Under the pieces are notes generated by a model. It made no database searches. It had not been told where the DNA came from and was given only the letters and a program-made list of their open reading frames with translations. Source: Pseudomonadota bacterium (GTDB taxonomy: Bacteria; Myxococcota_A; Polyangia; Fen-1088). Taken from it: a stretch of DNA of 64,000 nucleotides. The stretch covers positions 5,713 to 69,712 of the forward strand of contig JANOJB010000060.1 in assembly GCA_031407985.1 (NCBI GenBank). The letters run 5' to 3'. Below are positions 167-62,888 of the stretch, one piece after another (within the stretch, counting starts at the first letter, position 1; every line of letters starts with the position of its first letter). The position numbers were made by a program, and so were the translations under genes.

Positions 167-625
167 TCAGTTCACGGAAACCAGAGCCGATCCATCGCGG
201 CCACAGACCATCGCTACGGCGTCGTATCGTCGCGAGCAACTGGGGCATATCTTGCCGGGGTTCGCCGGGGGATTCACGGCCGAATCCCCGGGAGCCGCAG
301 CCGTCAGGTGCGTGTCCAGCGTCAGCACCCTGGCGTCGTACGGACAGAACCGCAGGCCGGGCGCGTACTGCCTACGACAGGTCGGGCACAACATGAAGGC
401 ACCCGGTGGTGGGGGTGGCGTCGCCCCCTTCACCGTAGGGGTCTCACCTGTGTGGTGGGCGATCGCCGGTTTATCCGGCGGTGGCGAACCCGGACTAGGA
501 CCTCCATGCGTCTGATCGGTTCCTCTGGCCCGTGGACCGCGCCACCGGGGTGCGACCAGAACCACCACCAAGGTCAACGCGAGGGCCGCAACCGCCATGA
601 ACAAGATGATTTGCTCGACCTGCAT
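167..625 (-). CDS. Membrane-anchored protein with two zinc-ribbon-like motifs
   Basis: N-terminal hydrophobic helix (IILFMAVAALALTLVVVLVAP) and a Pro-rich linker. Two CxxC...C motifs follow (CPTCRRQY..FCPYD and CPSCSRRY..VCGRDG). The opposite-strand ORF 69..515 has junk-like composition. Confidence 0.55.
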   Translation of the reverse strand: MQVEQIILFMAVAALALTLVVVLVAPRWRGPRARGTDQTHGGPSPGSPPPDKPAIAHHTGETPTVKGATPPPPPGAFMLCPTCRRQYAPGLRFCPYDARVLTLDTHLTAAAPGDSAVNPPANPGKICPSCSRRYDAVAMVCGRDGSALVSVN

Positions 626-657: not shown

Positions 658-774
658 CCCTTCTTGGTAGCTCTTCTTGGTAGCTCTTCTTGCTAACTCT
701 TCTTGCTAACTCTTCTTGGTAACTCTTTTTGGTAACTCTTTTTGGTAACTCTTTTTGCTAACTCTTTTTGCGCT
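658..774. repeat. Tandem array of nine 13-bp units (ctcttcttggtag / ctcttcttgctaa / ctctttttggtaa variants)
   Basis: Read directly from the sequence. Units start at 658, 671, 684, 697, 710, 723, 736, 749 and 762. The array is AT-rich in a GC-rich background, and neighbouring units are often identical pairs. Confidence 0.95.
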
Positions 775-1381
775 TCCGCTTCGCTTCGTTGAACGGTACG
801 GATTTTGGCGCACCCAACTTCTGGACGGCCTGATCGACGGCCTGTTTCACCGCGTCCTTGATGGCGTCCCTGGTCATGGCCTCGGCCTCGGTGTCGAGGC
901 GGCTTTCCGGGACCTCTGCTTCCACGCTGGCTTCGCCGTCCCCGCCAAACGAAATCTTCTCCCCCGGAAGCGTCGTTCCCAGTACCGAAAGCTTCACGTT
1001 CACGGACAGACGTTTCAACCGGGAGCCGGGGTTGGGTTCCTTCACCTCTTTCTTGAGCTGGGTGATCTTCACGACGACGTCAAAACCAGCGAGATTTCGT
1101 TTCTTCAGCTCGCTCAGGACCATCTCACGGTTCTTCGCGCCTCCCAGGTCCGACGCCCATTCAGGACGCGAGGCCAGTTCTTCCCGAACCGCATCGCCGG
1201 TGAAGCTGCGAATATCGCCATTCAGCGGAAGCCGGGACTCAACCTCGTGTAATTCAAAATAGTACTTGGCTCCTGCCGCCAGCGCCGACGGCGCCGCCAG
1301 TACCAGCGAAAGCGTCGCGACCGACAAAAGTCCACGGAAGGTGAATTTCGCGATTCCGCTTCGGATTGACTGGTCTCCCAT
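758..1381 (-). CDS. Secreted hypothetical protein with signal peptide and Lys/Arg-rich tail
   Basis: Signal-peptide-like N-terminus (LLSVATLSLVLAAPSALAAG). No family recognised. The C-terminal KRKRKKS and the stop codon lie inside the 13-bp repeat array. Confidence 0.6.
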   Translation of the reverse strand: MGDQSIRSGIAKFTFRGLLSVATLSLVLAAPSALAAGAKYYFELHEVESRLPLNGDIRSFTGDAVREELASRPEWASDLGGAKNREMVLSELKKRNLAGFDVVVKITQLKKEVKEPNPGSRLKRLSVNVKLSVLGTTLPGEKISFGGDGEASVEAEVPESRLDTEAEAMTRDAIKDAVKQAVDQAVQKLGAPKSVPFNEAKRKRKKS

Positions 1382-1703: not shown

Positions 1704-3542
1704 ATGATCAAGCTCACGATCACAGAAAAAGGCGGGGAGCCCCGGGCTCTGACTTTTGTCCAGGATGAGGTGACAATCGGGCGGGTGCAGGGCAACGACA
1801 TCGTGCTGCCGAAAGGGAACATCTCGAAGCGGCACACCAAGTTGACGCTGTCGGATGGACGGATGACGGTCGCCGACGTCAAAAGCACGAACGGTACCTA
1901 CGTGAACGGGCGCAAGATCGGTGAACCCACCGCCGTGCGGGCGGGCGACAAGATCTTCGTAGGTGACTTCTTGATCGTCCTTGATCCCGGTGCCGCTGCC
2001 GCGGAAACCTCGGCGGTCAGCGGACGTCGCGGACCGCCGCCGCCGCCGCCACCCCCACCGCGTCCGGGATCGAGCGCGCGCCCCGCGCCAAGTCCCGACG
2101 TTGCCGAGCCAGACGAAGCCACCGGTGGATTTGGAGGACTGGGCGATAAGGCACCAAGCACGGGTCGGGGACGTCCCCCCACACCGCCACCTCCTCCCCC
2201 ACGACGAACCATCGTCACCACGTCGCTTCAGGACGACAGCGTCGACATCGGCATCGACGAGGCGCCTCCATCACCCGACGAGATCGGTCCCGATGCGTCG
2301 GCCGCCAGCCAGGATCCGCTGGCGGATCTTGCCGCCGACGTCGACGACGTGGGGTTGGGCAGCGACGTCTTCGGATCCCAGGCCGCCGATGACGAAGACG
2401 AAGGCGCGGGTGAGAGCACGAACTTCCCGCCGTCGTCGCCCAGTCGACTAAGCGGTCCCGCGCTCGCCGTCGCGGATGACACCGAGCGTCCGGAGCGCTC
2501 GGGCCGCTCGCAGTCCGCCTCGGCGGCTCAGTCACGGCCGGTGCTTTCTCCTGATGCCACGTCCGCAGGAGGCGTCACCCTGGAGGCGCTGCTCGCGGAT
2601 CCGACGGTCACCAGCATCTTGATTGCATCGGGTGGCGCCATGCACGTCGAGCGTGGCGGCAAATCGGAACCGGCCGGTCCGGTGGCGGATGCCAACGCAA
2701 TCGCAGAAACCGTCTGGCAGATCGCGAACACGGCGGTGCCTCCGCCCCCCTCCGACAACCCGGTGGTTGATGTTCGGTTGCTGGACGGAACCCGCGTCAC
2801 CGCGTTGTTCCCCCCCATCACGCCAGGGTCGGTCTGTGCGGCCATTCGAAAATCGACGGTGCCCGAGATTCCGCTCGCCGAAATCGCGGGCAGCGGCGAC
2901 GTCGAACGGATCCTGACCGCGGCGCTTGCAAGCCGTCGCAACCTGTTGCTGGGTGGCGAAACCGCCGCGGTCGCCGCGTTGGCGGGAGCGTTGGCGGGAG
3001 CGTTTCCCGCCGGACGACGAATCGTCAGCATCGGAGCGGGCGTCAAATCCCGTCCCGACTGGATTGAGCTTGGGCCTGGCAATGATCCGGCCGCCCTGGT
3101 TCGTGCCGCGGTCGCTTTTCGCGCCGATCACCTGTTGGTTGCGGATGCCGGTGGCGCCGAGTTGCCCGAACTGTTGCTGGCCGCAGCACGCGGACAAGAG
3201 GGTGTGATCGCGTCCATGGCGGCACGTTCGGCCACCGAGGCCCTTTCGCGCCTGCGTGCGTTCTCCGTCGGAGCGCTGGGAGCGTCGGCGTTCGCGTCGC
3301 TGGTGCACAGCACCATCGATTTGATTGTCATCGCGGGTACGACCGCCTCGGGCGGCGTTCGGATTCTGGAAATCGCAGAGCCCAACGCAGAGGGAGACAA
3401 CCTGGTCGCCGCGACCGTGGCCCGTCGGCCCGAGCGAAATCGCGCCGCCACGACTCTGGATGTGGCCGGTGTATCATCGCGGCTGGCCGCCGCCATCGCC
3501 GTCGCGGCGGACGGATTGCCCACGCACCTGGTCCGGCGCTGA
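1704..3542 (+). CDS. FHA domain protein fused to a degenerate CpaF/VirB11-like (T2SSE) ATPase domain
   Basis: N-terminal FHA signature (IGRVQGNDIVL..SKRHTKL..STNGTYVNG). A Pro/Asp-rich linker follows. The C-terminal half matches T2SSE blocks (LEALLADPTVTSILI..HVERGG, VDVRLLDGTRVTALFPP..IRK), but Walker A, Walker B and the His box are replaced. Confidence 0.85.
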   Translation: MIKLTITEKGGEPRALTFVQDEVTIGRVQGNDIVLPKGNISKRHTKLTLSDGRMTVADVKSTNGTYVNGRKIGEPTAVRAGDKIFVGDFLIVLDPGAAAAETSAVSGRRGPPPPPPPPPRPGSSARPAPSPDVAEPDEATGGFGGLGDKAPSTGRGRPPTPPPPPPRRTIVTTSLQDDSVDIGIDEAPPSPDEIGPDASAASQDPLADLAADVDDVGLGSDVFGSQAADDEDEGAGESTNFPPSSPSRLSGPALAVADDTERPERSGRSQSASAAQSRPVLSPDATSAGGVTLEALLADPTVTSILIASGGAMHVERGGKSEPAGPVADANAIAETVWQIANTAVPPPPSDNPVVDVRLLDGTRVTALFPPITPGSVCAAIRKSTVPEIPLAEIAGSGDVERILTAALASRRNLLLGGETAAVAALAGALAGAFPAGRRIVSIGAGVKSRPDWIELGPGNDPAALVRAAVAFRADHLLVADAGGAELPELLLAAARGQEGVIASMAARSATEALSRLRAFSVGALGASAFASLVHSTIDLIVIAGTTASGGVRILEIAEPNAEGDNLVAATVARRPERNRAATTLDVAGVSSRLAAAIAVAADGLPTHLVRR

Positions 3543-3580: not shown

Positions 3581-4654
3581 GTGGCGCGCCTGCCCGCCGG
3601 ACTGATTCGCCCCGGACCGGCTGCTGAACCAGCCGAAATCGCCCGGGTCGAGTCCACGCTGGGAGCCGCGCTGCCGACCTCATTCGTGTCGTTCCTGCGA
3701 TCGTTCGATGGTGCCGATCTGTTTCACGAGGCCGTGGTCATCGCGGGCGTCGGCGGCAGTGCCCCATTGGGCCTGATGGACATCAACACCGATCTCCCGG
3801 GGCCCGGCGAGATCATCTTCGCCGAGGTGCTGGGGGGCGATCGGTACGCGTTCGACGTCGCGGGGCGGGTGTTGCGTCTGCGCGCCGGCTCCGACGAACG
3901 GTGGATCGCGGGTGGCGACTATGCTCATTGGTTGGACGGAATCGTGGCGTACCAAAGGGTGCTGTACGGCCCAGACGGTGAATTCATGCCGGAGGCATTC
4001 GAGCCCGACGGTGGCGAGGTGTCCCCCCCCGTTGCGTTGAAGCAAGCCGACCGGGCCTTGCGACGTTGTGACGATTCGGCGGAATGGCACCACGAACGCG
4101 GCGTGGCCTTGCGCCGTCTGGGACGCATTTTGGATGCAAAGGAAGCGTTCGCGCATGCGGCGGCGGCGGATCCCGAAAACCCCTGGCCGCTGTTCGACCT
4201 GGGACGCGCGGCTCTGACCCTGGGCCCCGGTGGTGCCCGCGAGGCGGGCGCCGGGTTCGAAGCCGCAGCCAAATTGGATCGTGATGAATCCGCCGCGCGC
4301 ATGTGGATATGGGCAGCGCGGGCAGCGCTCCTGGAGGCCGCACCCGAACGCCTGGCCCTGTGCCGGCGGGAAGCCATCGCGCGCGATCCGGTGATTGGCG
4401 TGGCGCTACGCCGGGCGCGCGACGCCGCCCTGCTGGACGACGATCCGGACGAAGTTGAAGAGGCTCAGGCCCTCCTGGACGCCTTGGAAATCATTCCGCC
4501 ACCCGGGCGCACACGATTGCCCGTCGTGACTGAAAACGAGATCAGCGCGACGCCGGCAGCGCCAACTCACCGAACGCGACGACCTGACCAGCAGCATCCT
4601 GCCCGGTCAACACCGCGGCGATCCGCCGGGCCCCGGACGGGACGCCGACACTGA
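3581..4654 (+). CDS. SMI1/KNR4 (SUKH)-like domain protein with TPR-like C-terminal half
   Basis: The N-terminus IARVESTLGAALPTSFVSFLRSFDGADLF resembles the SMI1/KNR4 motif. The helical Ala/Arg-rich second half is TPR-like. GTG start at 3581. The tail overlaps the convergent gene by 113 nt. Confidence 0.65.
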   Translation: MARLPAGLIRPGPAAEPAEIARVESTLGAALPTSFVSFLRSFDGADLFHEAVVIAGVGGSAPLGLMDINTDLPGPGEIIFAEVLGGDRYAFDVAGRVLRLRAGSDERWIAGGDYAHWLDGIVAYQRVLYGPDGEFMPEAFEPDGGEVSPPVALKQADRALRRCDDSAEWHHERGVALRRLGRILDAKEAFAHAAAADPENPWPLFDLGRAALTLGPGGAREAGAGFEAAAKLDRDESAARMWIWAARAALLEAAPERLALCRREAIARDPVIGVALRRARDAALLDDDPDEVEEAQALLDALEIIPPPGRTRLPVVTENEISATPAAPTHRTRRPDQQHPARSTPRRSAGPRTGRRH

Positions 4655-6077
4655 CGGTGTCGGGGGCGCCAGCATCGGTCGCAAAAGATCCGATCGGGCG
4701 CCTCCGTCCATTTTCGTCATCGGCGAACAACCGCAACTGCCCGCCTGTAATTCGTCCCATCGGTGACGCGATCCTCGCACGGACTTGATCACCATCCTTC
4801 TCCAGCGCGATTTCGCCGCGCAGAAGGTGGTCAATCAGACCTGCGGAGTAACCCGCGATTTCGGGCAACAAAACCCGCGCGCTGTCCGCGTGAACACGCG
4901 CGTCCAGAAAGAATCGAACGCGCCCCGGGACGCGTTGGTATCCCAGAACCCGACGCGCGGGGCCACCCACCGCATCGGTAACGGTGACGTATCGACGCCG
5001 TCCCAATTCACGCAGTTCCAACCTTGGCACCGTCGGCAACCCGAAGGTCAATGACTTGCGTGCCTCGCGAACAACGTCGGCCGCCGAGGTGTCGTGATCG
5101 ACAACGCCGTCCTCGGGAATAGTCCCCTCCGAGAAAAAATGTCTCTGCGTGCGATCGGCCAGGCCCTGACCGTCGGCCGCGGTGAAGAATGCCCGCAGGT
5201 TGTCGCGGCGCACCACCTTCGACGGTGCCGGAATGCCACCCATCCCGTACAACTGGACCACGACACGCTCGTACGGCGACGCGCGGTCGAATGGACTTCC
5301 CGCGCTTCCCGCCAGATAAGCGGACCGAAAATCGTTCCGCACCTGCGCCGGATTTCCCGCGTCCTGCAGAATCGTCAAGACGCCTCCCAGCGCCATCAGC
5401 GCCCGCGCCAAGGCTGAAACGCGCTGTGCTGGGTCGGGATCGGCGATGGCACGTTCCAACTGACGATGAAAGACCGATAAACCGACATCGTTGCCCGGGG
5501 CCTCCAGCCAGCGCAGAGACGGATCACCCACGAAAGAAAACCCAGCCCCGGTGGCGACTCCCCGCAGGCTTCCGCCAGCGTCGGCCACCAGTCTTATCGC
5601 GTGCACAAAATCGTCGACGCCGGCAGCGTCCCGCAAACCCTGCCCCGTGCTGGGATCGAAGTACATGTGTTGAATCCGCTCGGGTGGGGTCTTGGCTATC
5701 ACCGATCCGGCGACGACAAACGCCAGTGCTGACGCGACCCCGTCGTCGCCAGGTCGGTAGCCGCCCGCCGGATCCAGGGCACCCAGGCGCGCGACCAGCA
5801 ATCGGCGTTCGTCGATGGCAATCAACCCGGGGTGCAGCGACAAGGGTGCGAAAATCCCCTGTGGTCGGGCCAACCTGCGCACCAGCGTTTGATGCAAGCC
5901 CGAGGCAACCACCGCCTGTTGAGTCAGTCCTGCGTGGGTTGTCGCGGGATCGTAGGCATGGACACTGGTCGTACCGAGGCAGATCCCCGCCAACGCCACA
6001 ACTGCTGCCGCCGTCCGCCGTCGCAAACGGACACCAGCACATGCGCGTACCTGCATCGCGCTTCCGTCGTTCCTCAC
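4542..6077 (-). CDS. Secreted hypothetical protein (possible zinc-dependent phospholipase C-like N-terminus, weak)
   Basis: Signal peptide (AAAVVALAGICLGTTSVHA) followed by YDPATTHAGLTQQAV. The start is either GTG at 6077 (GTGA overlap with the upstream gene) or ATG at 6056. The family call is from memory only. Confidence 0.6.
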   Translation of the reverse strand: MRNDGSAMQVRACAGVRLRRRTAAAVVALAGICLGTTSVHAYDPATTHAGLTQQAVVASGLHQTLVRRLARPQGIFAPLSLHPGLIAIDERRLLVARLGALDPAGGYRPGDDGVASALAFVVAGSVIAKTPPERIQHMYFDPSTGQGLRDAAGVDDFVHAIRLVADAGGSLRGVATGAGFSFVGDPSLRWLEAPGNDVGLSVFHRQLERAIADPDPAQRVSALARALMALGGVLTILQDAGNPAQVRNDFRSAYLAGSAGSPFDRASPYERVVVQLYGMGGIPAPSKVVRRDNLRAFFTAADGQGLADRTQRHFFSEGTIPEDGVVDHDTSAADVVREARKSLTFGLPTVPRLELRELGRRRYVTVTDAVGGPARRVLGYQRVPGRVRFFLDARVHADSARVLLPEIAGYSAGLIDHLLRGEIALEKDGDQVRARIASPMGRITGGQLRLFADDENGRRRPIGSFATDAGAPDTVSVGVPSGARRIAAVLTGQDAAGQVVAFGELALPASR

Positions 6078-7240
6078 GGCTCCTCCTGAACTTCGCCAGG
6101 CGCGGCCGGTTCGGGCACGGCGGGAAGTTGTGACGGTGGTAGGGCCAGGCTGGAAGCCTCAGGAAGCTCCGGAAGACGAGATTCGACCAACTTACCCAGC
6201 CTGACGATCTGGCTCGAATCCGTGCACTGGCCCGCGCCGCAGGTCAGCGAAACGACCACACCCCGCTCGCGGACCAGAAAAACCAGGCCCTGGATCTGGC
6301 CGGTCTGTGCCCGAAAAGATGCGTCACCAATCTCGTCGGTGATGTTGGCCTTGGGCAGGTCCTTCTGCAGTTTGCCGTACTGCACTTCGGCGGCGGCTGC
6401 GCCCAAACGCCAGACACGCAAACCGACGTCGTGGCTCTCCGTTCGGCCTTTCGCCTTGAAGTGCCTGCTGTCGTAGAACTCGGTCGTCGGCAAGTCGGCC
6501 AGTTTGCCGTCGTCGAAGGTCCCCACGTACCCGGTGACGCCGCGTATTTCGTCGTCCGTCAGCAATCCGGCGATGTTCAGCATCGCCACAGGCGCACCGG
6601 CGGTGGAACCCACTGTTCCGCTTCGTCCCGACGCCTCCCCGTCCAGATCCAAACCCGCTTGCTCTGCTTCCCAGGCGGCAGCCTCTCGAAGTCTCGCCCC
6701 GCCGCCCAAGAACATCAGATGCTGCCCGTGCGCAAACGTTGGCTGCCAGCGCTCCAGCCGCACCAGATTGCCGCGCTGACTGAAGTCACGTCGCGCCTGC
6801 CTCCCCGGAAAACGGCGGTCGCTTCTCCAGCCGACGTATCCGCGCCGGTAGACAATGATCGTGAATCGGCGTACCCGTGCCGACATCCCGGTTGGCAGTC
6901 GAGACAACCGCGCGATCGTGTACCGCCCGTCGGCCCCGGTTTGCGTGACCACCTCCTCGGCATCAAGGGGTCCCGCCGCCCCAATACCCCGCTCGAACGC
7001 CCAGGAGGCCGCGACGATGGCACCTGCGATAGGCCGCTCTGAATCGGCGTCCACGACTTTGCCGTCGTAGGGGCCCAACAAATCGGCGGGTCGCACGGAA
7101 TCGGGTCGGGACGGAAACGGGGCGCGGTCGATGATCGGACCACAGGCCGCCCCCGCGACTCCCCACAGCGCGAAAGCGACCACGAACGACAGCCCCGTCG
7201 AATTGACCGCGGCGGGTGAACTTGTTAATCGTCGACTCAA
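6074..7240 (-). CDS. Lipoprotein with carboxypeptidase-regulatory-like domain
   Basis: Lipobox-like signal (LSFVVAFALWGVAGAAC). A YDGKVVDADSERPIAGAIV...TGADGRYTI segment is typical of CarboxypepD_reg-like domains. I chose TTG at 7240; ATG at 7360 is an alternative. The track ORF extending to 7609 overlaps the divergent gene and looks spurious. Confidence 0.6.
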   Translation of the reverse strand: MSRRLTSSPAAVNSTGLSFVVAFALWGVAGAACGPIIDRAPFPSRPDSVRPADLLGPYDGKVVDADSERPIAGAIVAASWAFERGIGAAGPLDAEEVVTQTGADGRYTIARLSRLPTGMSARVRRFTIIVYRRGYVGWRSDRRFPGRQARRDFSQRGNLVRLERWQPTFAHGQHLMFLGGGARLREAAAWEAEQAGLDLDGEASGRSGTVGSTAGAPVAMLNIAGLLTDDEIRGVTGYVGTFDDGKLADLPTTEFYDSRHFKAKGRTESHDVGLRVWRLGAAAAEVQYGKLQKDLPKANITDEIGDASFRAQTGQIQGLVFLVRERGVVVSLTCGAGQCTDSSQIVRLGKLVESRLPELPEASSLALPPSQLPAVPEPAAPGEVQEEP

Positions 7241-7426
7241 GGCGGATTTAACACTGAGTGACAGGTCCGGGGAGGTGATTGGCAATTGGAAAGAGGCGGC
7301 AAGTGGGCGACGGATTACAACAATGCAAACGGCCGTGTTCCCGCCGGTCTGGATGCACATTGAGCGCTCGCCTGTTACCAGAGCTTCCGCCGCCACGCAA
7401 TCGTTCCCGGAGAGGAACCTAACGGG

Positions 7427-8263
7427 ATGGTCCGTTGTGGAAGCTGTCGGTTGGAGAATCAAGATGGCGCCGTCACGTGTCGTCGCTGTGGGACTCGGAT
7501 GGGGGCCATCCCGTTGTCCAGCGCCGCCATCGGGGCGGGCATGACGACGGTTGGACCGACGGCCCCCAAGGCAGCGCGGCCGCCTGCCCCGGCACGTCGC
7601 GGTCCCCAAGCGCCGGTAGCGATTCGCGGACGTCTAGTTTCTGTTTTGCCCGATGGGCGCGATGACACGGTCTACTGGCTGGAGGACGATCAGGTCGACA
7701 TCGGACGGAAGGACGGTGACATTCGGATCGACGATCCCCAACTTGCGCCCCGCCACGTGCGTTTGAATCTGACGCTGGGGGGGGCCATGTTGACTCCGCT
7801 TGACCATCGCAATGGCGTTTACCTGCGCCTGCGCGCGCCTGTCGAACTTGGCGATGGTGACCACATCCTTCTGGGCCGGCAGGTTTTGAGGTTCGAAATC
7901 GTTCCGGAGCACGAGCGCCTCGCGCGCCCCGCCGTCGAGGATGGCGTCGTATTTTTCGGAACACCGGCGCCTTCCGCCTGGGGTCGCCTGCGGCAAATCA
8001 CCTCGAGCGGTCTTGGCCGGGACCTGTACCACCTGTCGCGGACCGAAATGACCCTGGGCCGGGATCACGCCGATTTGGTGTTCGCCGACGACGAATTCCT
8101 GTCCCGGCGTCACGCGCAACTGGCTATTTCCAGGGGCAAACCCGTCTTAAAGGACCTTGGGAGCTCGAACGGCACCTATATCCGCCTTCGGGCGCCCCAG
8201 GTTCTGGTCCCCGGCGACATGATACGCATCGGCGACCAACTATTGCGATTCGAGCTCGGTTGA
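7427..8263 (+). CDS. Zinc-ribbon protein with two FHA domains
   Basis: N-terminal CGSCRLEN..CRRCG motif. Two FHA signatures are present (DIGRKDGDIRIDD..APRHVRL..NGVYL and LGRDHADLVFADDEFLSRRHAQL..SSNGTYI). Confidence 0.85.
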   Translation: MVRCGSCRLENQDGAVTCRRCGTRMGAIPLSSAAIGAGMTTVGPTAPKAARPPAPARRGPQAPVAIRGRLVSVLPDGRDDTVYWLEDDQVDIGRKDGDIRIDDPQLAPRHVRLNLTLGGAMLTPLDHRNGVYLRLRAPVELGDGDHILLGRQVLRFEIVPEHERLARPAVEDGVVFFGTPAPSAWGRLRQITSSGLGRDLYHLSRTEMTLGRDHADLVFADDEFLSRRHAQLAISRGKPVLKDLGSSNGTYIRLRAPQVLVPGDMIRIGDQLLRFELG

Positions 8264-8310: not shown

Positions 8311-9618
8311 ATGAGCTCACCCGACATTCAGATCGAGGTCTTCGGTAAGACCGATGTGGGGCTGATCCGCGAGCACAACGAGGACAATCTCCTCGTTGCC
8401 GATCTCGGCGGCGCGCTGAAAGAATCCGATCTCGACGCGCCCGCGAAACTGAACCTGGGCGATCACGGCGCGCTTTTCCTTGTCTGCGACGGCATGGGTG
8501 GCGCGGCCGCCGGCGAGGTGGCCTCGCAAATGGCCGTGGACGTCATCTTCGATGTGCTGGCGGCGACGGATCCTCTTCCCCGCGAAGGGTTCGCCCGCGC
8601 CCTACGCCATGCTGTCGAAACAGCCAACGATCGCATCTTCCAACAGTCACGCGACAACCAGAACGAACGCGGCATGGGCACCACCTGCACGGCCGCGGCG
8701 CTGATAGACGACACGCTGATCGTCGCCCAGATCGGCGATTCGCGCTGCTACGTCCTGCGCAACGGGCAACTGGGACAGGTCACAAAGGATCAGTCGCTGG
8801 CGTGGCAACTGATCGAAGCGGGGGCGATGACGCCCGAGGACGCCAAAGCGTTCGAACACGCGAACATCATCCTGCAGGCGCTGGGCGTTCAAGATCGCGT
8901 CGACGTGGTCTTGTCCCAGGTTCAGTTGCGCCGCGGGGACATCATGGTCCTTTGTTCGGACGGACTGCACGGTCCCGTGGTGGATCAGGAAATTCAGGAG
9001 GTTCTGATCGGCGAACCTGATCTCAAGAAAGCGGGAGAAGGACTGCTGCAAAAGGCGCTGGAGCGCGACGGCCCCGACAACATCACGGTCGTTCTGGCTC
9101 GGTTCGACGGAACGGGTCTTTCCGATCCAACGCCCGACGACAGTGTCGGATTTCTCGCCTACGATCCCGGTCCCGATCCGGTCTCGGAGTCCGGCACGGC
9201 GTCCGTGTCCGCATCGTCAAGTGGCCGCGTTCGCACATCGGGCGCGACGGTGATCGCCGCGGCGATGGTCGAAACCACGGAAGAAACCGCCACCGCGCCT
9301 AGGTCGAATGGCAAAAGAGGCAAAAACCACGAAGATGGCACGAACGCGAACCGAGCCTTGGAAAGCGTGCCTGCCGGTGTCGAGTCAAAACCCAAGTGGT
9401 CAGATTGGTCCGGCCTGACGCGCCTGGCGGATTGGCTCGAACGATTCGGACGACGCACCTCTTCCGACAAGGAGGTCGGTCTCTACACACCGACCCGCAA
9501 CGGACGATCGGTGATGGCGCTGTTCTTCATCGCGTTACTCACCGTGGCGGCCGGCGGCATTCTGGTGCTCAAATGCGAACGCGACCCGATCGTACGCAGC
9601 GACGGGCAAACACCATGA
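8311..9618 (+). CDS. PP2C-family Ser/Thr protein phosphatase with C-terminal TM helix
   Basis: PP2C motifs are present: REHNEDN, VCDGMGGAAAGEVAS, IGDSRCY, LCSDGL and DNITVV. C-terminal helix MALFFIALLTVAAGGILVL. Confidence 0.9.
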   Translation: MSSPDIQIEVFGKTDVGLIREHNEDNLLVADLGGALKESDLDAPAKLNLGDHGALFLVCDGMGGAAAGEVASQMAVDVIFDVLAATDPLPREGFARALRHAVETANDRIFQQSRDNQNERGMGTTCTAAALIDDTLIVAQIGDSRCYVLRNGQLGQVTKDQSLAWQLIEAGAMTPEDAKAFEHANIILQALGVQDRVDVVLSQVQLRRGDIMVLCSDGLHGPVVDQEIQEVLIGEPDLKKAGEGLLQKALERDGPDNITVVLARFDGTGLSDPTPDDSVGFLAYDPGPDPVSESGTASVSASSSGRVRTSGATVIAAAMVETTEETATAPRSNGKRGKNHEDGTNANRALESVPAGVESKPKWSDWSGLTRLADWLERFGRRTSSDKEVGLYTPTRNGRSVMALFFIALLTVAAGGILVLKCERDPIVRSDGQTP

Positions 9619-9628: not shown

Positions 9629-10963
9629 ATGATCTGCCCCCATTGTCGATCGGATCTCGAGGATGGTGCTCGCTTCTGCGGGGCCTGCGGAACGCGGATC
9701 GATCCAGAATCCCTGTCCGACTCCGCCCCCACCCTTAGCCTAGATGTCCCCGCCACGTCCGACGAACCGCCCCCCGCAAGCCACATGGGTGGTGCCAGGT
9801 CGGAGAAGGCCGCAGCGACCAGCGCGCGTTCCGCGAATCCCGCGCTGGACGCGACGATGTTGGCGGCTCCCGTGCCGCTGATCGCCGGCGCCCAGGGGGG
9901 GCCCACACGTCCCGCCATCCTCCCGTCATTCCTTCCGCCTACTTCAACCGCACAACCCGCCGGGACGGAACGCACCGAACGAAAATCAGAGAACTCCGGA
10001 TCTCGCGACGACATGGTCGGCCGTACGCTGAACAAGCGCTATGTCGTCGGTGAAAAGGTGGGCGAAGGCGGTTTCGGGGCGGTATTTCGGGGCAAGCAGC
10101 TGGCCACCGGTCGCGAGGTGGCGCTGAAGATTCTTCATCCCTACAACCTTTCCGACAAGACCATCATCGCGCGGTTCAAGCGCGAGGCCGAGGCCTGTTC
10201 GAGGTTGCGCAATCCCCATACGGTCATCACGTACGACTTTGATCAAACCGAGGACGGCGTGTTGTACCTGGCGATGGAGATGTTGCGCGGCAAGAGTTTG
10301 CATCAGCTGCAACGAAGCGAGGGACACCTCCATCCCGACCGCGTGCTGCACATCATCGATCAGGTGGCCGAAGCGCTGGGCGAAGCGCATCAAAACGGAA
10401 TCATCCACCGCGACATGAAGCCCGAGAATATCTTCATCGAACGACGCGGCGACGAGGACTACGTGAAGGTTCTGGACTTCGGCATCGCGAAGATCGCGGG
10501 CGACGATCGCACCCAGGCCGCCCTGACCGCCGTCGGTCAAACGCTGGGGACACTGGAATTCATGTCACCCGAGCAATTGCGCGGACTACCTCTCGATGGG
10601 CGGTCGGACATCTACGCGCTGGGCATCATGGCGTACGAAATGCTGACCGGCGAATTGCCCTTCAAGGACGCGAAGACGCCGGTCCAGATCATCAACTTCC
10701 ACATGCAGAAGCCGGCGCCGGCGCCGTCACGGATGAATCCGAACCTGCAAATTCCCAGCTACGTCGACGAGGTCATTCTGAAGATGGTGGAAAAAGCCCG
10801 CGATGACCGTCATGCGGACACGGCCGCGTTGCAGGCCCACATCGCCAGGGTCCTGAAGGGCGCGGACAAACGCGCTGATCGTTTCGAGGCGTACCGGGTC
10901 GTGGGCGTCGTCGGCGCCGCGGTGCTGATCATCAGCACTCTGGTCTTCTTCCTGAGCCGGTGA
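9629..10963 (+). CDS. Hanks-type Ser/Thr protein kinase with N-terminal zinc ribbon and C-terminal TM helix
   Basis: CPHCRSD..CGACG at the N-terminus. Kinase motifs are present: GEGGFGAV, VALKIL, HRDMKPENI, DFGIAK and MSPEQ. C-terminal helix VVGVVGAAVLIISTLVFFL. Confidence 0.9.
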   Translation: MICPHCRSDLEDGARFCGACGTRIDPESLSDSAPTLSLDVPATSDEPPPASHMGGARSEKAAATSARSANPALDATMLAAPVPLIAGAQGGPTRPAILPSFLPPTSTAQPAGTERTERKSENSGSRDDMVGRTLNKRYVVGEKVGEGGFGAVFRGKQLATGREVALKILHPYNLSDKTIIARFKREAEACSRLRNPHTVITYDFDQTEDGVLYLAMEMLRGKSLHQLQRSEGHLHPDRVLHIIDQVAEALGEAHQNGIIHRDMKPENIFIERRGDEDYVKVLDFGIAKIAGDDRTQAALTAVGQTLGTLEFMSPEQLRGLPLDGRSDIYALGIMAYEMLTGELPFKDAKTPVQIINFHMQKPAPAPSRMNPNLQIPSYVDEVILKMVEKARDDRHADTAALQAHIARVLKGADKRADRFEAYRVVGVVGAAVLIISTLVFFLSR

Positions 10964-19855: not shown

Positions 19856-22570
19856 TCAGCCCGGGCGGCCGGCGCGAATCGCGGCGATGGCTTCGCGCGC
19901 GGCGGCCGAAACCGAGTCCTCGGAGTCCTCCCGGGCGGCGCTTTCCAGCGCGGGCAAGACGTCGATGCGACCGATCTTGGCCAGGGCCCGGGCGGCCTGG
20001 GCGCGCACGGGAACGTATTCGTCGTGGCGCAGCCGTTCGATCAGCGCCGCTATAGCCTTCGGATCGCCGATGTCTCCCAACGCGTCGACCATCTCGCGAC
20101 GGTTCTGCACCTCGGGCAGATGTTTCAGCAGGGATGGAACGGCGCGGCGATCCTTCAGCTTGCCCAGTTGGATGATGACCAGACGGCAGAACAGGACATC
20201 GTCCTGACAGTCGTCAAGGGATTCAGCCAGCGTGGGAACGCCCGCCGGATCGCCGCGCGCCGCCAGCGCAAGTGCCCCTCGGATGCGTAGCATGCGGGGA
20301 AGTTTTTGATCGCCCAGCAGCCGGGCCACGGGCCCGACGGCGCGCGCGTCGCCACCGCGAACTGCCCCCACCGCGGCCCAGTTTGCGACCAGGGGATCGC
20401 GATCATTCACGGCGATTGACAGCTGCGCCGCTGTTTCCTTGCGCGGCGGCAAGGTCACCAGAAGCTGCACCGCCTCGCGACGAACGGCGATGGACTCGTC
20501 GGTGGACAACATCAACGCGGCCAGGGCCGGCCCGGCCAACAGATCGCCCAGCCGTCCGCGCTCGATGGCCTTCGGAACCTGTTCACCGTTCGGGTTCGAC
20601 GCCCCCCGCGCCAGCACGGGCTCGAAGCGGGTGTGGCCGTCCAGCCACCGATCCAACATCCCGCGTAGCGCCGCCGCGCGCTCCGGGCGTTCGTCCGCCA
20701 GGTTGATCCGCTCGCCGGGATCGGCTGCCAGGTCGTGGTAGGCGCAGTATCCCCAGTTCAGATCGCAGATCAGCTTTTCCTGTCCCGCGACGATCATCCG
20801 TTTGTCCTCGACCTCGGCAAACGCCGGCGGCAACCGCATCTCGTCCGCCGGCGGGGTGGCCAACCAGGGACCCAGATTCGTACCGCGCATCCGCGCCGGC
20901 ACGGGGATGTTCAGCAGACCCAGGATCGTCGGCGCGATATCGATCAATTCCACCGGCCGGCTGATAACGCGCGCGTTGACACCCGGAACGCTCACTATCA
21001 GAGGAACGCGAATCTGCTCGTCGAACAACGACGATCCGTGATAACGCCCGCCGTGTTCGTCGAATTCCTCGCCGTGATCGGCGGCCAAAATCACGATGGC
21101 CCCCGGCCGCTGGTCGCGCACGAAGGCCAGCAATCTGCCGACGGCGGCGTCGACGTACGCTATCTCGCTGTCGTAGCGATCCATGTCACCGCTACCGAAC
21201 GGAAATGCGGCGTGCGCGACATAGGGCTCGTGGGGTTCGAAAAAATGGACCCAGACGAACGATCGTTTGGGTTTCTCGTTCTGGTAGTAGGCGATCACCT
21301 GATCGACCCGCTTCTGCGCGTCGAGATACTCGAATTTGACGTACTCGAACGAAAAATTGCTGTCGGCGTAGGCCTTCAGTTTTTGCGCGTCGACGAAAAA
21401 AATGGCCGGGGGATAGAACCCGGCGTTGTGCCAGCCATGCTGCCGCAGTACGGACGTGATGGGATCGTGAACCTCCGCCGGGGCCAGACGCGCCAGAGTG
21501 GGGAAGTATTTGCCCGTCAACATCGACGCCACGGAAAAGGACGTGTGCGGTGCCTGCGCGTACGCACGAACGAAACGCGTTCCTGTGGCGGCCAGCCTAT
21601 CGATGTGAGGTGTGGTTGGACGTCGGGTGTAGCCGTAGGCACCGACGTGATCCGCGCGCAGCGCGTCCACGGTGATCACGATGACATCAGCATCCGGGCG
21701 TTCGGGCCCCTCTGGCAATGGTGGCAAATCACCGGCTCCCTCCAGACCCTCGACCGCGATGGGCGCCCGCGACCGCAGCGACACCGGAGACAGGCGAAAC
21801 AACTGGGCCGTGACGGTGGTGCGTTCCAGCGCCGCGAAGCGGATGCTCTGGCTGCGGCGCGCCTCGACCGCCGAAAAAGCAGCGAGAACACCCACAGCAG
21901 CGATGAGCCCAACCAGACGGCCGGGCGAGAACATGCGTGAGACGCCCTGCCCCGCCAGCCACAACCGGACGGCCAGCAAGACGGACATACCCGTCAGCAC
22001 CGCCAGCGATGCATGAAACCAGGGGTACAGGCGCCGCAACACCAGCTGGTTGCAGATTTCGGTGGCGATGGCGGCCGCACCCAGACCCACGATCATCAGG
22101 ACAACCCGCACGGACCGCTTCGACGGGATTCCTGTTGCCTCGGCAAGAAGCAGCCGAAAGTTCCACGCCATACCAAACGCCGCCGCCGTACCCAGAAACG
22201 CGACGGCGCCGATCAGCGGCGCCCGTCCCGACATTTCGGCCGCGCGCCTACCGCTGAACGCAGCGAAGGCAACAAACATGGCGAACGGCGCGACCGCCAG
22301 CGCGGCCAGGCCCGCCTCCGCGAGATGGCGCCGGCGACCGCTGCGCGCAGCCACAATTCCACCGAGCGCGATCAGAAGGCCGACCACCCCACCCGCCAGG
22401 GTCAGCCAGCTGGCTCCAAGGAGAATCAGTTTACCAGCCTTCAGGGCATCCAATCCCCCGACCCCGCGGGTCACGGCCCACAGGGTGTCGCCCACGCCAA
22501 CGATTGCACCGGCGCCCAGGCCCGCCCGCAACCACGGCGCCGCGGCAGGTCCCTGCTCCCCCGACGCCAC
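19856..22570 (-). CDS. Polytopic membrane protein with sulfatase-like (alkaline phosphatase superfamily) domain and C-terminal HEAT repeats
   Basis: About 7 N-terminal TM helices. Sulfatase-like block VIVITVDALRADHVGAYGY..PHIDRL..APHTSFSVASMLTGKY and AADHGEEF. The C-terminal 250 aa has HEAT/PBS-lyase-like repeats (VRAQAARALAKIG). The GTG start overlaps the recG stop (TAGTG). Confidence 0.85.
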   Translation of the reverse strand: MASGEQGPAAAPWLRAGLGAGAIVGVGDTLWAVTRGVGGLDALKAGKLILLGASWLTLAGGVVGLLIALGGIVAARSGRRRHLAEAGLAALAVAPFAMFVAFAAFSGRRAAEMSGRAPLIGAVAFLGTAAAFGMAWNFRLLLAEATGIPSKRSVRVVLMIVGLGAAAIATEICNQLVLRRLYPWFHASLAVLTGMSVLLAVRLWLAGQGVSRMFSPGRLVGLIAAVGVLAAFSAVEARRSQSIRFAALERTTVTAQLFRLSPVSLRSRAPIAVEGLEGAGDLPPLPEGPERPDADVIVITVDALRADHVGAYGYTRRPTTPHIDRLAATGTRFVRAYAQAPHTSFSVASMLTGKYFPTLARLAPAEVHDPITSVLRQHGWHNAGFYPPAIFFVDAQKLKAYADSNFSFEYVKFEYLDAQKRVDQVIAYYQNEKPKRSFVWVHFFEPHEPYVAHAAFPFGSGDMDRYDSEIAYVDAAVGRLLAFVRDQRPGAIVILAADHGEEFDEHGGRYHGSSLFDEQIRVPLIVSVPGVNARVISRPVELIDIAPTILGLLNIPVPARMRGTNLGPWLATPPADEMRLPPAFAEVEDKRMIVAGQEKLICDLNWGYCAYHDLAADPGERINLADERPERAAALRGMLDRWLDGHTRFEPVLARGASNPNGEQVPKAIERGRLGDLLAGPALAALMLSTDESIAVRREAVQLLVTLPPRKETAAQLSIAVNDRDPLVANWAAVGAVRGGDARAVGPVARLLGDQKLPRMLRIRGALALAARGDPAGVPTLAESLDDCQDDVLFCRLVIIQLGKLKDRRAVPSLLKHLPEVQNRREMVDALGDIGDPKAIAALIERLRHDEYVPVRAQAARALAKIGRIDVLPALESAAREDSEDSVSAAAREAIAAIRAGRPG

Positions 22571-24960: not shown

Positions 24961-25580
24961 CGCTTGTACGTGAACTTCAGCTCGTACTCGCAGATGTGAA
25001 ACACATCGCCTTCATCTATCCGTTTATTGTCGATGCGCATCCCATTGAAATCAATGCCATTTGTAGACCCAAGATCTTTAATAAAGAACGTCCCGTTGCG
25101 GCGAATCACCGCCGCGTGTTTTCGCGAGATGTTCCCATCCTTGATCGGCAGGTCGGACGATTTCGTGCCGCGACCGATAATGAACTGTTCCTTGTCGATG
25201 CGGTATTTCTGGTTGTCGAACGTCAAGTACAACGTCGCGCCACCGGAAGCGCCGTCCGGCGCGGGCGGAGGTCCCCCGGCGCCCGTTCCGATTCCAGGCC
25301 GAGGCGCGTGCGATGTCGGACGGCCAGGACGCGCCGGCGCGGGTGGAATGAACGGCTGCGGCCGCGCTCCTCGGAGCGGCGAAGGTGTCGGCGCCGGCGT
25401 CTGCGCGTGAACAGCGGTTTCGTATCCCGCGATCTGGGCATACCCCGTCATCGCGTCGTTGATCAGGTCTTCCAGACTTTTTTCCTGCTCCTCGGCCATC
25501 TGTTCGAACGTTTGCCACAGGCGGTCCCGGCAGCGAATCTCGCGCATGCTGCTGCGATTTCGGTCATCGATGGACATCAT
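24957..25580 (-). CDS. RHH-like N-terminal domain fused to FHA domain
   Basis: The C-terminal FHA signature is IIGRGTKSSDLPI..ISRKHAAV..STNGIDFNG. The N-terminal MREIRCRDRLWQTFEQMAEEQEKSLEDLINDAMTGY has a strand-helix-helix pattern. A Pro-rich linker joins them. There are 4-nt overlaps with both neighbours. Confidence 0.8.
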   Translation of the reverse strand: MMSIDDRNRSSMREIRCRDRLWQTFEQMAEEQEKSLEDLINDAMTGYAQIAGYETAVHAQTPAPTPSPLRGARPQPFIPPAPARPGRPTSHAPRPGIGTGAGGPPPAPDGASGGATLYLTFDNQKYRIDKEQFIIGRGTKSSDLPIKDGNISRKHAAVIRRNGTFFIKDLGSTNGIDFNGMRIDNKRIDEGDVFHICEYELKFTYKR

Positions 25581-26896
25581 CCCTTGCTCCGAATCACACC
25601 CGCGACGCGAGTGGCTTCCTTGCCGATGGTCTCACCCGACGGGAAACCCTTGATGACGGTCGTGTCCTTGGCAATCTTATCCAGCGCCGGTGCGTCGGCA
25701 GCCTTGCCCACGCTCTCCAGGGACAGGACCGCTGTCATGCGCGCCAGGGGATATTTCGATTCCAATGCCTTCACAAGGACTGGCCTCGCCGGTTGGCCCA
25801 ACTTCTCGATGAGTTTGACCAACAGATCCTCGACGTCCACTTTCTTGCTGGGAGCGCTGGCGGGAAACGCCTCCAGGCCGGGCACAACGCCGTCATGTTT
25901 GGCCACCGCCAGGAGGGATTCGAACGCGCGGTAGCGGACCAGCTCCTCCTTGTCGGTTTGGATGATGCGAATCAAACCATCGCGGGCCTCCAGACCACCG
26001 ATGCTCTCGACGACGCCGAACATTTCATCGCGGATGGTGCGATCACCCTTGGAATCGGCGGCGATTTTCATCGCAAACGGCAGTACCGATGGGTCGCGGC
26101 GCTGCTGGAGCGCGCGCACTGCTGCCGAGGCCTCGTCGCGGTTTCCGGCCAAGACGCGCTCTTCCAGGAACTTCACGGCGTCGGGGCCACCCAGAAGGCC
26201 TATCGCCTTCCACATCGGTTCGGAGACCGGCTTGTCGCGCCGCGCGCGCGCCACCAGATTCTGCGCGCCCTTGCTACGCGTCGGCTCATCGCCGATCTTG
26301 GCCAGCAGTTCAGCGACCGCCGGGTATCCGATGATCGGCTCGCCCAGCAGGCCCGCCAACATGCCGCCCGCGGAAACCCCGACTGCGGTCAGGATCTTTT
26401 CGACGGAATGCCTTCCATTGCGCACCTTGCCGCCACGAAGGTCCTGCTCGATTCCCGGCACCAGGGCGGCGTCGATTCGGGCCTGATCCTCGGCCTGTCC
26501 CCATGCGCGCAGGGAGAACAGCGCATCCCGAAAACCCAGGTATTTCTCGGGCGCCGAGTCCTTGTTCGCGGCCATGTTGGTCATGTACAAGGGCAGCAAG
26601 GTCTTGAATACCTCCCAACGTTCGTTGGCGGGCATGGACGCCAGCGCGGCATCAACCTGATCGGCCTTGCCGATCTCCAACAAAGCGACGGCCGCCTCGG
26701 CGCGCAGCTTGGGCTCGGTCGCGCGGTCAGACAGCGCGTCGGCCAGTTTTCCCGGTCCTTTCTCGGTCGACTTCCACAACTGGATGTTGTCGGAGGTCGG
26801 CTTGCTACAGGCGAGTTGCGGCAAGATCGCCGCGATCGTGATCAACCAACCCGCGAAACAAACTCGACAAAAGGGCGGGAGCGGTCGAAATATCAT
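25577..26896 (-). CDS. HEAT-repeat lipoprotein
   Basis: Start trimmed to ATG 26896, giving MIFRPLPPFCRVCFAGWLITIAAILPQLAC (lipobox). Helical HEAT-like repeats run throughout. The track extension to 27685 overlaps a better-supported plus-strand gene. Confidence 0.75.
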   Translation of the reverse strand: MIFRPLPPFCRVCFAGWLITIAAILPQLACSKPTSDNIQLWKSTEKGPGKLADALSDRATEPKLRAEAAVALLEIGKADQVDAALASMPANERWEVFKTLLPLYMTNMAANKDSAPEKYLGFRDALFSLRAWGQAEDQARIDAALVPGIEQDLRGGKVRNGRHSVEKILTAVGVSAGGMLAGLLGEPIIGYPAVAELLAKIGDEPTRSKGAQNLVARARRDKPVSEPMWKAIGLLGGPDAVKFLEERVLAGNRDEASAAVRALQQRRDPSVLPFAMKIAADSKGDRTIRDEMFGVVESIGGLEARDGLIRIIQTDKEELVRYRAFESLLAVAKHDGVVPGLEAFPASAPSKKVDVEDLLVKLIEKLGQPARPVLVKALESKYPLARMTAVLSLESVGKAADAPALDKIAKDTTVIKGFPSGETIGKEATRVAGVIRSKG

Positions 26897-62849: not shown

Positions 62850-62888
62850 CGCCGCCACCCCTGAACCGGCCGACGCCCAGGAGATCCC

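Follow-up and report, generated by a model that had tools for sequence, protein, structure and literature searches.

The gene g3, at positions 1704..3542 on the + strand of the 64-kb stretch of DNA analysed here (the window), is, as read from its sequence, an intact and conserved gene that joins an FHA domain to a CpaF-type ATPase domain in which the fold has been kept and the catalytic residues are gone. The pattern of substitution among its relatives and the predicted structure support the view that its product is a pseudoenzyme maintained by purifying selection.

Domain architecture and fold

The g3 reading frame starts with ATG and runs uninterrupted for 612 codons. Domain searches and a full-length AF2 model give the same layout as in KilF of Myxococcus xanthus, with an FHA domain at the N terminus, a disordered linker and a CpaF-type domain, here a pseudo-ATPase, at the C terminus; the pLDDT is ~96 in the FHA domain, below 50 over aa 97-287 and ~92 over aa 289-612. 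The FHA domain (aa 1-96; 1704..2003, + strand) matches Pfam PF00498 over aa 23-85 (nt 1770-1958) with E=3.6e-16 and 59.8 bits against a threshold of 20.7. Its phosphothreonine-pocket residues R27, S41, H44 and N63 are all present and are invariant in 34 orthologues, which bears out the original prediction of an intact frame with a canonical N-terminal FHA domain. To judge by these residues, the domain probably binds phosphothreonine. It is also the most conserved part of g3 (mean identity of 67% between the homologues and the window sequence), and is still 56-62% identical in P0113 and P0149, two distant relatives that share the synteny. Behind it lies a linker of ~190 aa (aa 101-288; 2004..2567, + strand), which is predicted to be disordered (AF2 pLDDT below 50) and is rich in Pro, Ser, Ala and Asp (35 Pro, 25 Ser, 24 Ala and 21 Asp among 188 residues). 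Two polyproline-Arg tracts in the linker, at nt 2034-2060 and 2175-2207, are conserved among orthologues, and its pairwise dN/dS is 0.2-0.36.

The remainder of the protein consists of a CpaF/TadA-like NTD (aa 289-385) and a degenerate ATPase domain (aa 386-569), encoded together at 2568..3410 on the + strand. This region aligns end to end in phmmer searches with the solved CpaF chains 8rkd, 8rjf and 9e24 (E=7.6e-14 to 1.9e-13), residues 289-569 of g3 corresponding to 147-449 of the 501-aa CpaF at an identity of ~23%. The NCBIfam models for TadA (TIGR03819; E=1.1e-22), TrbB (E=1.3e-17) and VirB11 (E=8.4e-16) also match, but with scores far under their curated cut-offs (80.7 bits against 373 for TadA and 57.9 against 250 for VirB11). 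The AF2 model of aa 285-612 (pLDDT 92.1, pTM 0.87) shows a two-domain fold of NTD and RecA-like domain, whose best Foldseek matches in the PDB are CpaF 9e24_A (E=2e-21, TMq 0.71) and 8rjf_A (TMq 0.74), followed by FlaI, archaeal GspE and VirB11. A CpaF/TadA/VirB11 fold had been proposed for residues ~291-560, in agreement with all of these results. The Pfam T2SSE model PF00437, named in advance as a test of that proposal, returned only 14.7 bits (E=0.012) against a gathering score of 24.9. By that one model the assignment failed; the homology to the CpaF/TadA family stands nevertheless, because the other searches and the fold establish it. By similarity and predicted fold, the C-terminal region of g3 belongs to the PilT/VirB11-like ATPases, in the CpaF/TadA subfamily. 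Its best match in both sequence and structure is thus CpaF/TadA, the bifunctional Tad pilus motor of Caulobacter crescentus (PDB 8RJF, 8RKD, 9E24), with which it shares the topology of the NTD and the RecA-like domain, the equivalents of D215, R217 and R223, and the C-terminal tail. It differs from CpaF in having no three-helix bundle at the N terminus of this region, no catalytic residues, no pore loop and no cpa/tad neighbourhood.

Catalytic residues and their history among relatives

The catalytic residues of g3 were mapped onto the numbering of C. crescentus CpaF, with residue roles taken from PMC12019362. All four motif strings of the original prediction were found in g3 at the places given for them. 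In the Walker A region (aa 411-428; 2934..2987, + strand), RRNLLLGGETAA-VAALAG replaces NLVISGGTGSGKTTLL in the alignments. The consensus GxxGxGK[ST] is absent; the sequence GGETAA-VAA has one residue deleted and neither Lys nor Thr, so that both K287 and T288 of CpaF are lost, and a CpaF K287A mutant has no ATPase activity (PMC12019362). A P-loop Lys displaced by an indel was considered and rejected, as no such Lys occurs in any alignment. The Asp box (aa 438-449; 3015..3050, + strand) reads RRIVSIGAGVKS and has lost its acidic residues for Mg2+ coordination, CpaF E308 being replaced by Gly, D309 by Ala and E312 deleted; the pore loop, seven residues long in CpaF (330-336), is missing directly past it. 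The inter-chain Arg finger R347 of CpaF is A471 in g3, immediately ahead of the Walker B stretch (FRADHLLVADAGGAEL, aa 472-487; 3117..3164, + strand). The latter reads LLVAD, with Gly changed to Ala and E357 of CpaF conservatively changed to D481, and some members of the g3 clade retain the GE of Walker B. The His box (ARGQEGVIASMAARSA, aa 495-510; 3186..3233, + strand) has become RGQEG....AAR, both His residues being lost (H374 to Q498 and H382 to A506).

The NTD has fared differently. In CpaF, D215, R217 and R223 of this domain contact the triphosphate, the Asp stabilizing the two arginines (PMC12019362). All three are kept in g3 as D356, R358 and R364, within the motif VVDVRLLDGTR (2763..2795, + strand; alignment to CpaF), and are invariant in the orthologues. 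The earlier claim that every catalytic motif had been replaced therefore holds for Walker A, the Asp box and the His box, and goes slightly too far for Walker B, where Glu to Asp is a conservative change, and for the three NTD residues. The substitutions suggest that g3 has lost ATP binding, and the retained arginines R358 and R364 might still bind a ligand that carries phosphate.

The loss of the P-loop is a shared trait. It is found in 32/32 close homologues of g3, none of which retains GKT, and also marks a monophyletic 'GDxxA' clade of database representatives; the whole P-loop-less clade has the signature NhhhxG[DE]xxA in place of Walker A, and RGQEG and ARS of the His-box region are conserved clade-wide. 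P-loop-less homologues occur in 44 species-level MAGs of Polyangia/Myxococcota, detected in a genome scan with peptide patterns from a narrow alignment that reaches only the closer g3 subfamily. All carriers found are uncultured MAGs, and cluster look-ups led to MAG or metagenome sources only; a homologue search with a profile of partly degenerate relatives gave mostly canonical CpaF, and no carrier in culture was named among its results. Pairwise dN/dS values, at dS 0.3-0.8, are 0.06-0.13 for the FHA domain, 0.06-0.15 for the NTD and 0.13-0.25 for the ATPase domain, that is, 0.06-0.25 across the folded domains; within the CpaF-like region conservation is highest in the NTD, and the replacement motifs NhhhxGD, RGQEG and ARS are themselves conserved across the orthologues.

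If g3 were a pseudogene in decay, a product of faulty assembly or similar to CpaF by chance alone, this would fit the T2SSE score under the gathering threshold, as well as the interruption of some MAG copies within the GC-rich linker. Yet frames of ~600 aa are intact in most of the 44 species, dN/dS stays far below 1 throughout the folded domains, E-values to CpaF/TadA range from 1e-13 to 1e-22, the CpaF fold is predicted with high confidence and the synteny is conserved. We consider such an explanation extremely improbable and have rejected it on the grounds of selection, conservation and fold. The prediction of a pseudoenzyme under selection rather than a decaying gene is supported by the clade-wide loss of the P-loop, the intact frames, the low dN/dS and the conserved replacement motifs.

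Relatives with the same type of FHA domain as in the window show a graded series of P-loop states: intact, K->R, K->V and wholly lost. P0172 has an intact GKTT and a lost His box, while P0113 and P0149 have K->R in Walker A, all three in the same synteny as g3. These milder forms would fit a protein that binds without hydrolysing, and so would the invariant triphosphate-contacting arginines and their stabilizing Asp. It is conceivable, then, that g3 is a ligand sensor, whose remodelled pocket binds a nucleotide or another phosphorylated ligand, with no hydrolysis, and thereby switches conformation or assembly, as in pseudokinases and further pseudo-NTPases that have kept their binding competence. 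The P-loop of the window clade, however, is one residue short, has an acidic residue (GD/GE) and contains neither Lys nor Thr, and the Mg2+-coordinating Asp-box residues are gone; we regard this possibility as rather remote.

A conserved kinase, phosphatase and FHA locus

The gene g3 lies in a block with the order g1-g2-g3-g4-g5-g6-g7(2xFHA)-g8(PP2C)-g9(STPK)-lepB-lepA, which recurs in the 44 species-level MAGs and is also found around more distant g3 members; in one of these, P0090, the downstream kinase block is missing within 10 kb. Its closest associate is g4 (3581..4654, + strand), a 357-aa protein of SUKH (SMI1/KNR4)-TPR architecture (Pfam SMI1_KNR4, 4.1e-6, plus TPR), which directly follows g3 in 42 of the 44 loci, mostly 40-90 nt downstream, and whose homologue also adjoins the distant members P0058, P0087, P0113, P0149 and P0071. 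It is a probable operon partner of g3. Searches of the PDB with g4 matched designed TPR proteins only.

Upstream, g2 (758..1381, - strand; 39/44 loci) is divergent from g3 and encodes an exported protein of 207 aa with a signal peptide and no family match in Pfam, NCBIfam or the PDB. Beyond it, g1 (167..625, - strand; 30/44 loci) encodes 152 aa with an N-terminal TM helix and a double zinc-ribbon. Downstream of g4 lie g5 (4542..6077, - strand; 37/44 loci), a 511-aa exported protein of unknown family with a signal peptide and no match in Pfam, NCBIfam or the PDB, and g6 (6074..7609, - strand; 34/44 loci), an exported or lipoprotein-like product with a weak CarboxypepD_reg match and none in NCBIfam or the PDB, whose true start is probably internal to the called frame. 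Anti-phage defence models of PADLOC matched none of g1, g2, g3, g5, g6 and g7, and g4 only marginally.

At the other end of the block, the 278-aa product of g7 (7427..8263, + strand; 36/44 loci) combines a zinc-ribbon with two FHA domains (Pfam FHA, 1.9e-24, in two stretches). Next comes g8 (8311..9618, + strand), a Stp1-type PP2C Ser/Thr phosphatase that reaches the cut-off of NCBIfam NF033484 (230 bits) and has a C-terminal tail anchor (TM helix aa 401-419). A zinc-ribbon Hanks-type Ser/Thr kinase, g9 (9629..10963, + strand; Pkinase 3.9e-50), likewise ends in a tail anchor (TM helix aa 424-442); in profile searches it matches a PknB-type kinase domain with a score under the equivalog cut-off.

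In Actinobacteria, the FHA proteins FhaA and FhaB (FipA) are encoded beside the membrane-anchored PP2C phosphatase PstP and the Hanks-type kinases PknA and PknB in a conserved core block. The g3 locus similarly groups FHA proteins, an anchored PP2C and a Hanks-type kinase in a core block, and both FHA domains match the FhaB_Rv0019c (FhaB/FipA) model, with 58.6 and 75.3 bits, under the equivalog cut-off. It differs in having no RodA or PbpA genes and in a kinase, g9, without PASTA domains, and we know of no actinobacterial FHA protein with a CpaF-like domain. The resemblance may best be described as one of organization, short of demonstrated orthology. Another parallel is the threonine-phosphorylation pathway PpkA-PppA-Fha1 of Pseudomonas aeruginosa, which controls the assembly of the T6SS, a machine with a ring ATPase; PMC8460266 cites this pathway. 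It combines an FHA adaptor with a kinase and a PP2C phosphatase, and the g3 locus encodes proteins of the same three kinds, but T6SS genes are absent near g3, and the FHA protein and the active ATPase ClpV are separate in that pathway, whereas in g3 the two are fused and the ATPase domain appears dead.

The nearest known protein to g3 is KilF of Myxococcus xanthus, an FHA-CpaF fusion. Seef et al. 2021 (PMC8460266) describe it as the hexameric motor ATPase of Kil, a Tad-like machine for killing prey; its gene cluster also encodes a secretin and a prepilin peptidase. The two come from the same phylum and share a two-domain architecture and an FHA-rich context, and for both contexts regulation through Ser/Thr phosphorylation has been suggested. 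In contrast to KilF, compared here by description rather than by sequence, g3 has lost Walker A together with the Asp and His boxes, the Arg finger and the pore loop, and sits in a kinase/phosphatase block without pilus or kil genes. The 64-kb window contains no Tad, Kil or other pilus or secretion genes (platform, secretin, pilins or prepilin peptidase), none of these was found in the Pfam-annotated flanks of 11 homologues (up to 10 kb, shorter at contig ends), and no Tad genes lie upstream in a 74%-identical relative; the survey of the 44 loci covered the window's own neighbours only, and Tad genes may occur there. Membership of g3 in a Tad/Kil cluster was rejected, as no such genes lie in the window or in the flanks inspected.

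A regulatory link to a pilus machine encoded elsewhere is a separate matter. As a subunit of a Tad/Kil apparatus, g3 might co-assemble or compete with the CpaF/KilF hexamer or its platform, acting as a phospho-controlled brake or recruiter. Its descent from CpaF would agree with this, as would the FHA-CpaF fusion of the Kil motor in a system rich in FHA proteins and the strong conservation of the NTD, the inter-subunit packing unit of the family, with D356, R358 and R364 kept. But the missing Tad, Kil and platform genes in the window and around the 11 homologues speak against it, as does the disappearance of the pore loop, the Arg finger R347 and the three-helix bundle. Moreover, the FHA domains of intact FHA-CpaF proteins share just 26-33% identity with that of g3, and a recent origin by duplication of KilF or of any such protein was therefore rejected. 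We hold a pilus-regulating role to be unlikely, if somewhat less so than ligand sensing.

A proposed phosphothreonine-recruited scaffold and its implications

Taken together, g3 is most likely a non-catalytic scaffold recruited by phosphothreonine, an inactive descendant of a CpaF/TadA-type ATPase kept as a protein-interaction module, a reading to which we give slightly better than even chances. The FHA domain would read a phosphothreonine mark, for which g9, the tail-anchored kinase, would be the writer and g8, the PP2C phosphatase, the eraser; it is their gene neighbourhood that suggests this link and the identity of the kinase. The disordered polyproline linker would tether the FHA domain to the body of NTD and RecA-like domain, which, turning over no ATP, would serve as a structural platform, possibly still forming a ring via the conserved NTD. 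Hexamer formation is an assumption here, the structure prediction being of a single chain. The platform may then bind partners, foremost the putatively co-transcribed SUKH-TPR protein g4, and the module, part of a core block of the chromosome that also encodes exported proteins, would be akin to FhaA/FhaB-PstP-PknB rather than to a pilus machine. In a bolder version, which we find tentative at best, a motor ATPase ring has been exapted as a nucleotide-independent, phosphothreonine-recruited hub and has become the core output of a lineage-wide Polyangia module for envelope or cell-cycle signalling, a myxobacterial counterpart of FhaA/FhaB-PstP-PknB, with the successive steps of its decay (GKTT with a lost His box, K->R, K->V and a shortened P-loop) preserved by relatives in the same neighbourhood.

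Literature searches on pseudo-ATPases with CpaF or pili, on FHA with T2SSE and on FHA with Polyangia or pseudoenzymes found nothing relevant, and neither a conserved catalytically dead PilT/VirB11-like lineage nor a protein of the g3 type was found described. The original statement that no function had been reported for such a protein agrees with these searches, although the FHA-CpaF architecture itself was already known from KilF. In public annotation, 'pilus assembly protein CpaF' or 'ATPase, T2SS/T4P/T4SS family' is the name given to g3-like proteins, which in genome-based trait prediction would falsely imply Tad pili. PilT/VirB11-like ATPases have so far been studied as motors. If the scaffold reading is true, their fold would be reusable as a signalling scaffold outside pilus and secretion machines, the relatives of g3 would offer a natural series for the transition from NTPase to pseudoenzyme, and g3 itself would be a candidate output component for the conserved kinase, phosphatase and FHA module of a branch of the Myxococcota that is large and uncultured.

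Fold and catalytic sites of the g3 protein

The gene g3 (1704-3542, +) is an intact ORF of 612 aa with the GC3 of a real gene, and its product carries a canonical FHA domain (aa 23-85, Pfam E=3.6e-16). The Pfam T2SSE match is sub-threshold (14.7 bits, E=0.012, gathering score 24.9), and the NCBIfam matches to TadA (TIGR03819, 1.1e-22), TrbB (1.3e-17) and VirB11 (8.4e-16) all lie far under the equivalog cut-offs. In a phmmer search of PDB sequences, Caulobacter CpaF (8rkd, 8rjf, 9e24) aligns end to end with aa 289-569 (E=7.6e-14 to 1.9e-13). AlphaFold2 models aa 285-612 with confidence (pLDDT 92.1, pTM 0.87), and the top matches of this model among solved structures are CpaF (E=2e-21; TM 0.71-0.74), then FlaI, archaeal GspE and VirB11. 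Together, these phmmer, NCBIfam, model and structure matches establish the homology of the C-terminal part to CpaF, which the original prediction had recognized by eye. In the full-length model, a well-folded FHA domain (pLDDT ~96) is followed by a disordered stretch (aa 97-287, pLDDT <50) and the CpaF-like body (pLDDT ~92). Since the alignment begins at CpaF residue 147, the N-terminal three-helix bundle of CpaF is absent from g3. The linker contains two polyproline tracts then Arg-Arg (2034-2060 and 2175-2207, +), as well as an 'LF' motif, all conserved within an otherwise fast-evolving sequence; these may be short linear binding motifs.

Residue roles were taken from C. crescentus CpaF (PMC12019362) and mapped to g3 through the CpaF alignment. 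Walker A (CpaF G281-T289, GGTGSGKTT) reads GGETAA-VAA, with one residue deleted and both K287 and T288 gone. In the Asp box, E308 and D309 are replaced by Gly and Ala and E312 is deleted, as is the pore loop (CpaF 330-336); the inter-chain arginine finger R347 is A471, Walker B G356-E357 is A480-D481, and His box residues H374 and H382 are Q498 and A506. The motif strings and coordinates initially read from the sequence were correct; the accompanying claim that every motif had been replaced holds for the most part, except that Walker B is still acidic (D481) and that the NTD residues D215, R217 and R223 are retained as D356, R358 and R364. In CpaF these three residues face the triphosphate (PMC12019362), and a ligand-binding, non-hydrolysing sensor acting via the retained NTD arginines can be envisaged; next to the substitutions at the other sites, we consider it quite improbable. 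The CpaF fold is thus preserved, while the aligned positions lack the residues on which Mg-ATP binding, its hydrolysis and coupling between subunits depend.

Conservation of the family and apparent decay of the P-loop

When the C-terminal part of g3 was searched against 5.8 billion proteins, 32 matched at E<=5.6e-59, with 43-75% identity, and a Walker A motif is absent from every one; genuine CpaFs first appear at 4.7e-23. Among 1.84 billion cluster representatives, scanned exhaustively, 29 matched at E<=1e-30, and many representatives of ~600 aa combine FHA with a CpaF-like domain lacking the P-loop. All clade members have the signature NhhhxG[DE]xxA with its one-residue deletion, new conserved motifs occupy former catalytic positions (RGQEG, and ARS replacing HAN), and the 'GD' clade is monophyletic in a neighbour-joining tree without support values. 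Among GTDB species representatives, homologues were found at 44 loci, all in uncultured MAGs labelled mostly Polyangia, Myxococcales or Myxococcota, and in most copies the reading frame is intact, about 600-670 aa long and with MIKLT at its start. For close pairs (dS 0.3-0.8), pairwise dN/dS by the Nei-Gojobori method is 0.06-0.13 in the FHA domain, 0.06-0.15 in the NTD, 0.13-0.25 in the dead ATPase domain and 0.2-0.36 in the linker. The proposal of a pseudoenzyme is thus supported by the clade-wide motif loss, the conserved replacement motifs and the low dN/dS; a decaying pseudogene is excluded by the shared motifs, the intact ORFs, the 44 loci and the same low ratios, and that g3 is a pseudogene or artefact of any kind is extremely improbable.

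The frame is broken before the CpaF-like part, in the GC-rich proline-coding linker, at five loci (L002, L013, L020, L028 and L043), and on one ENA contig (L053) the homologue is called as two pieces, a 141 aa FHA part and one of 380 aa; such interruptions in MAG loci are probably assembly indels, not real pseudogenes. One MAG (SMAG_U4998) has two g1-g2-g3 contigs (L001 and L037; 66% and 49% identical to the window), which are either paralogous copies of the block or contigs of different origin binned together.

Relatives whose FHA domain is 46-77% identical to that of g3 form a series of P-loop states, along which FHA is the most conserved part of the protein; the FHA of intact FHA-CpaF proteins is only 26-33% identical to it. 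At the mild end GKTT is intact and the His box lost (P0172, P0129); K->R follows (P0113, P0149, P0337, P0201), and beyond it lie K->V, other substitutions and the shortened GDxxA loop. P0115, also at the mild end, has nearly all motifs intact; it sits on a short contig with a neighbourhood unlike the g3 block, and is therefore only a possible orthologue. The surroundings of P0113, P0149 and P0172 are like those of g3, with genes for a SUKH-TPR or TPR protein and for a zinc-ribbon FHA protein, as well as two uncharacterized genes; a PP2C gene is also present beside P0113 and P0149, and a kinase with lepA/lepB beside P0149. Because graded P-loop states occur in relatives with similar FHA domains and neighbourhoods, it appears that catalysis was lost along a single orthologous line of FHA-CpaF proteins associated with this signalling block.

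Gene neighbourhood

Upstream of g3 lie g1 (-), with a TM helix and zinc ribbons, and g2 (-), a 207 aa exported protein; downstream are g4 (SUKH/SMI1-KNR4 and TPR), the exported proteins g5 and g6 of unassigned family (both -; g6, 6074-7609), g7 (zinc ribbon and two FHA domains; 7427-8263, +), g8 (Stp1-type PP2C phosphatase; 8311-9618, +), g9 (zinc-ribbon Hanks-type kinase; 9629-10963, +), and g10 and g11 (lepB, lepA). This order recurs across the 44 loci and is kept around a 35%-identical family member, with g4 directly after g3 in 42 of them, usually 40-90 nt downstream. Some distant members have a glutaredoxin-domain gene and a g2-sized gene (likened by size only) upstream and SUKH-TPR downstream, another has a glutaredoxin gene upstream and a TPR-only gene downstream, and one has only the upstream part of the block. 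The glutaredoxin-domain gene (~240 aa; L046-L047, L050 and one further locus) lies on the opposite strand just past the g2 position, which in window coordinates falls beyond the 5' end.

Both g8 and g9 are tail-anchored, each by one TM helix at its very C-terminus, essentially without an extracytoplasmic domain, and a zinc ribbon stands at the N-terminal start of g9 and g7. The 511-aa ORF of g6 overlaps g7 by 183 nt; translation probably begins inside this ORF, near nt 7200, because aa 142-160 resemble a signal peptide or lipobox and conservation in other loci is limited to the C-terminal 65-90%.

The rest of the window holds housekeeping genes including recG, purA, hisS, folD and parA-parB; the region looks core chromosomal, since parA-parB (56415-58348, +) lies ~53 kb from g3. 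Also present are a third FHA-domain protein (207 aa; 24957-25580, -) that is flanked by recG and a HEAT-repeat protein (22570-24960 and 25577-27685, both -) and apparently forms a same-strand run with them, two adjacent PilZ-domain genes (62421-63272, +) and a zinc-ribbon and GYF-domain protein (47103-48872, -). A second ORF of exactly 612 aa (22013-23851, +), opposite recG and sulfatase genes, was rejected as a g3 paralogue; it is a shadow ORF of a high-GC genome, passed over by GC3-based gene selection.

Possible role and relation to known systems

The constant companions of g3 are a kinase, a phosphatase, another FHA protein and a SUKH-TPR protein, and its FHA domain looks pThr-competent. 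We infer the function and mechanism of g3 as follows: g9 would generate pThr sites in its own chain or in a partner protein, g8 would remove them, and the g3 FHA would dock there, while the dead CpaF body, possibly oligomeric via its conserved NTD, would be a platform binding g4 and perhaps other cluster products. This is the reading towards which we lean slightly. Similar gene-cluster logic is seen in the actinobacterial FhaA/FhaB-PstP-PknB block and the T6SS PpkA-PppA-Fha1 pathway, a likeness drawn from general knowledge and weak NCBIfam similarities.

KilF of Myxococcus, a CpaF motor with a fused FHA domain that serves the prey-killing Tad system Kil (PMC8460266), has the same architecture, and g3 might regulate, under the control of phosphorylation, a Tad/Kil machine whose genes lie elsewhere; Tad, pilus and secretion genes were found neither in the 64-kb window nor in the inspected flanks of homologues, and we regard such a role as unlikely. 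Although g3 shares the CpaF fold, the catalytic and genomic features that define CpaF and KilF are missing from it, and it is therefore filed neither as a CpaF/TadA ATPase nor as a KilF orthologue; on its sequence, it is a non-catalytic derivative of a CpaF-type protein. Public annotations of such proteins read 'pilus assembly protein CpaF', 'ATPase, T2SS/T4P/T4SS family' or 'FHA domain-containing protein', and no description of a CpaF-family pseudo-ATPase, or of the g3 module, was found in the open-access full-text literature. A dead CpaF-type protein comes as a surprise to specialists in type IV filament motors and pseudoenzymes, and with this finding a conserved signalling module of uncultured Polyangia becomes directly testable.
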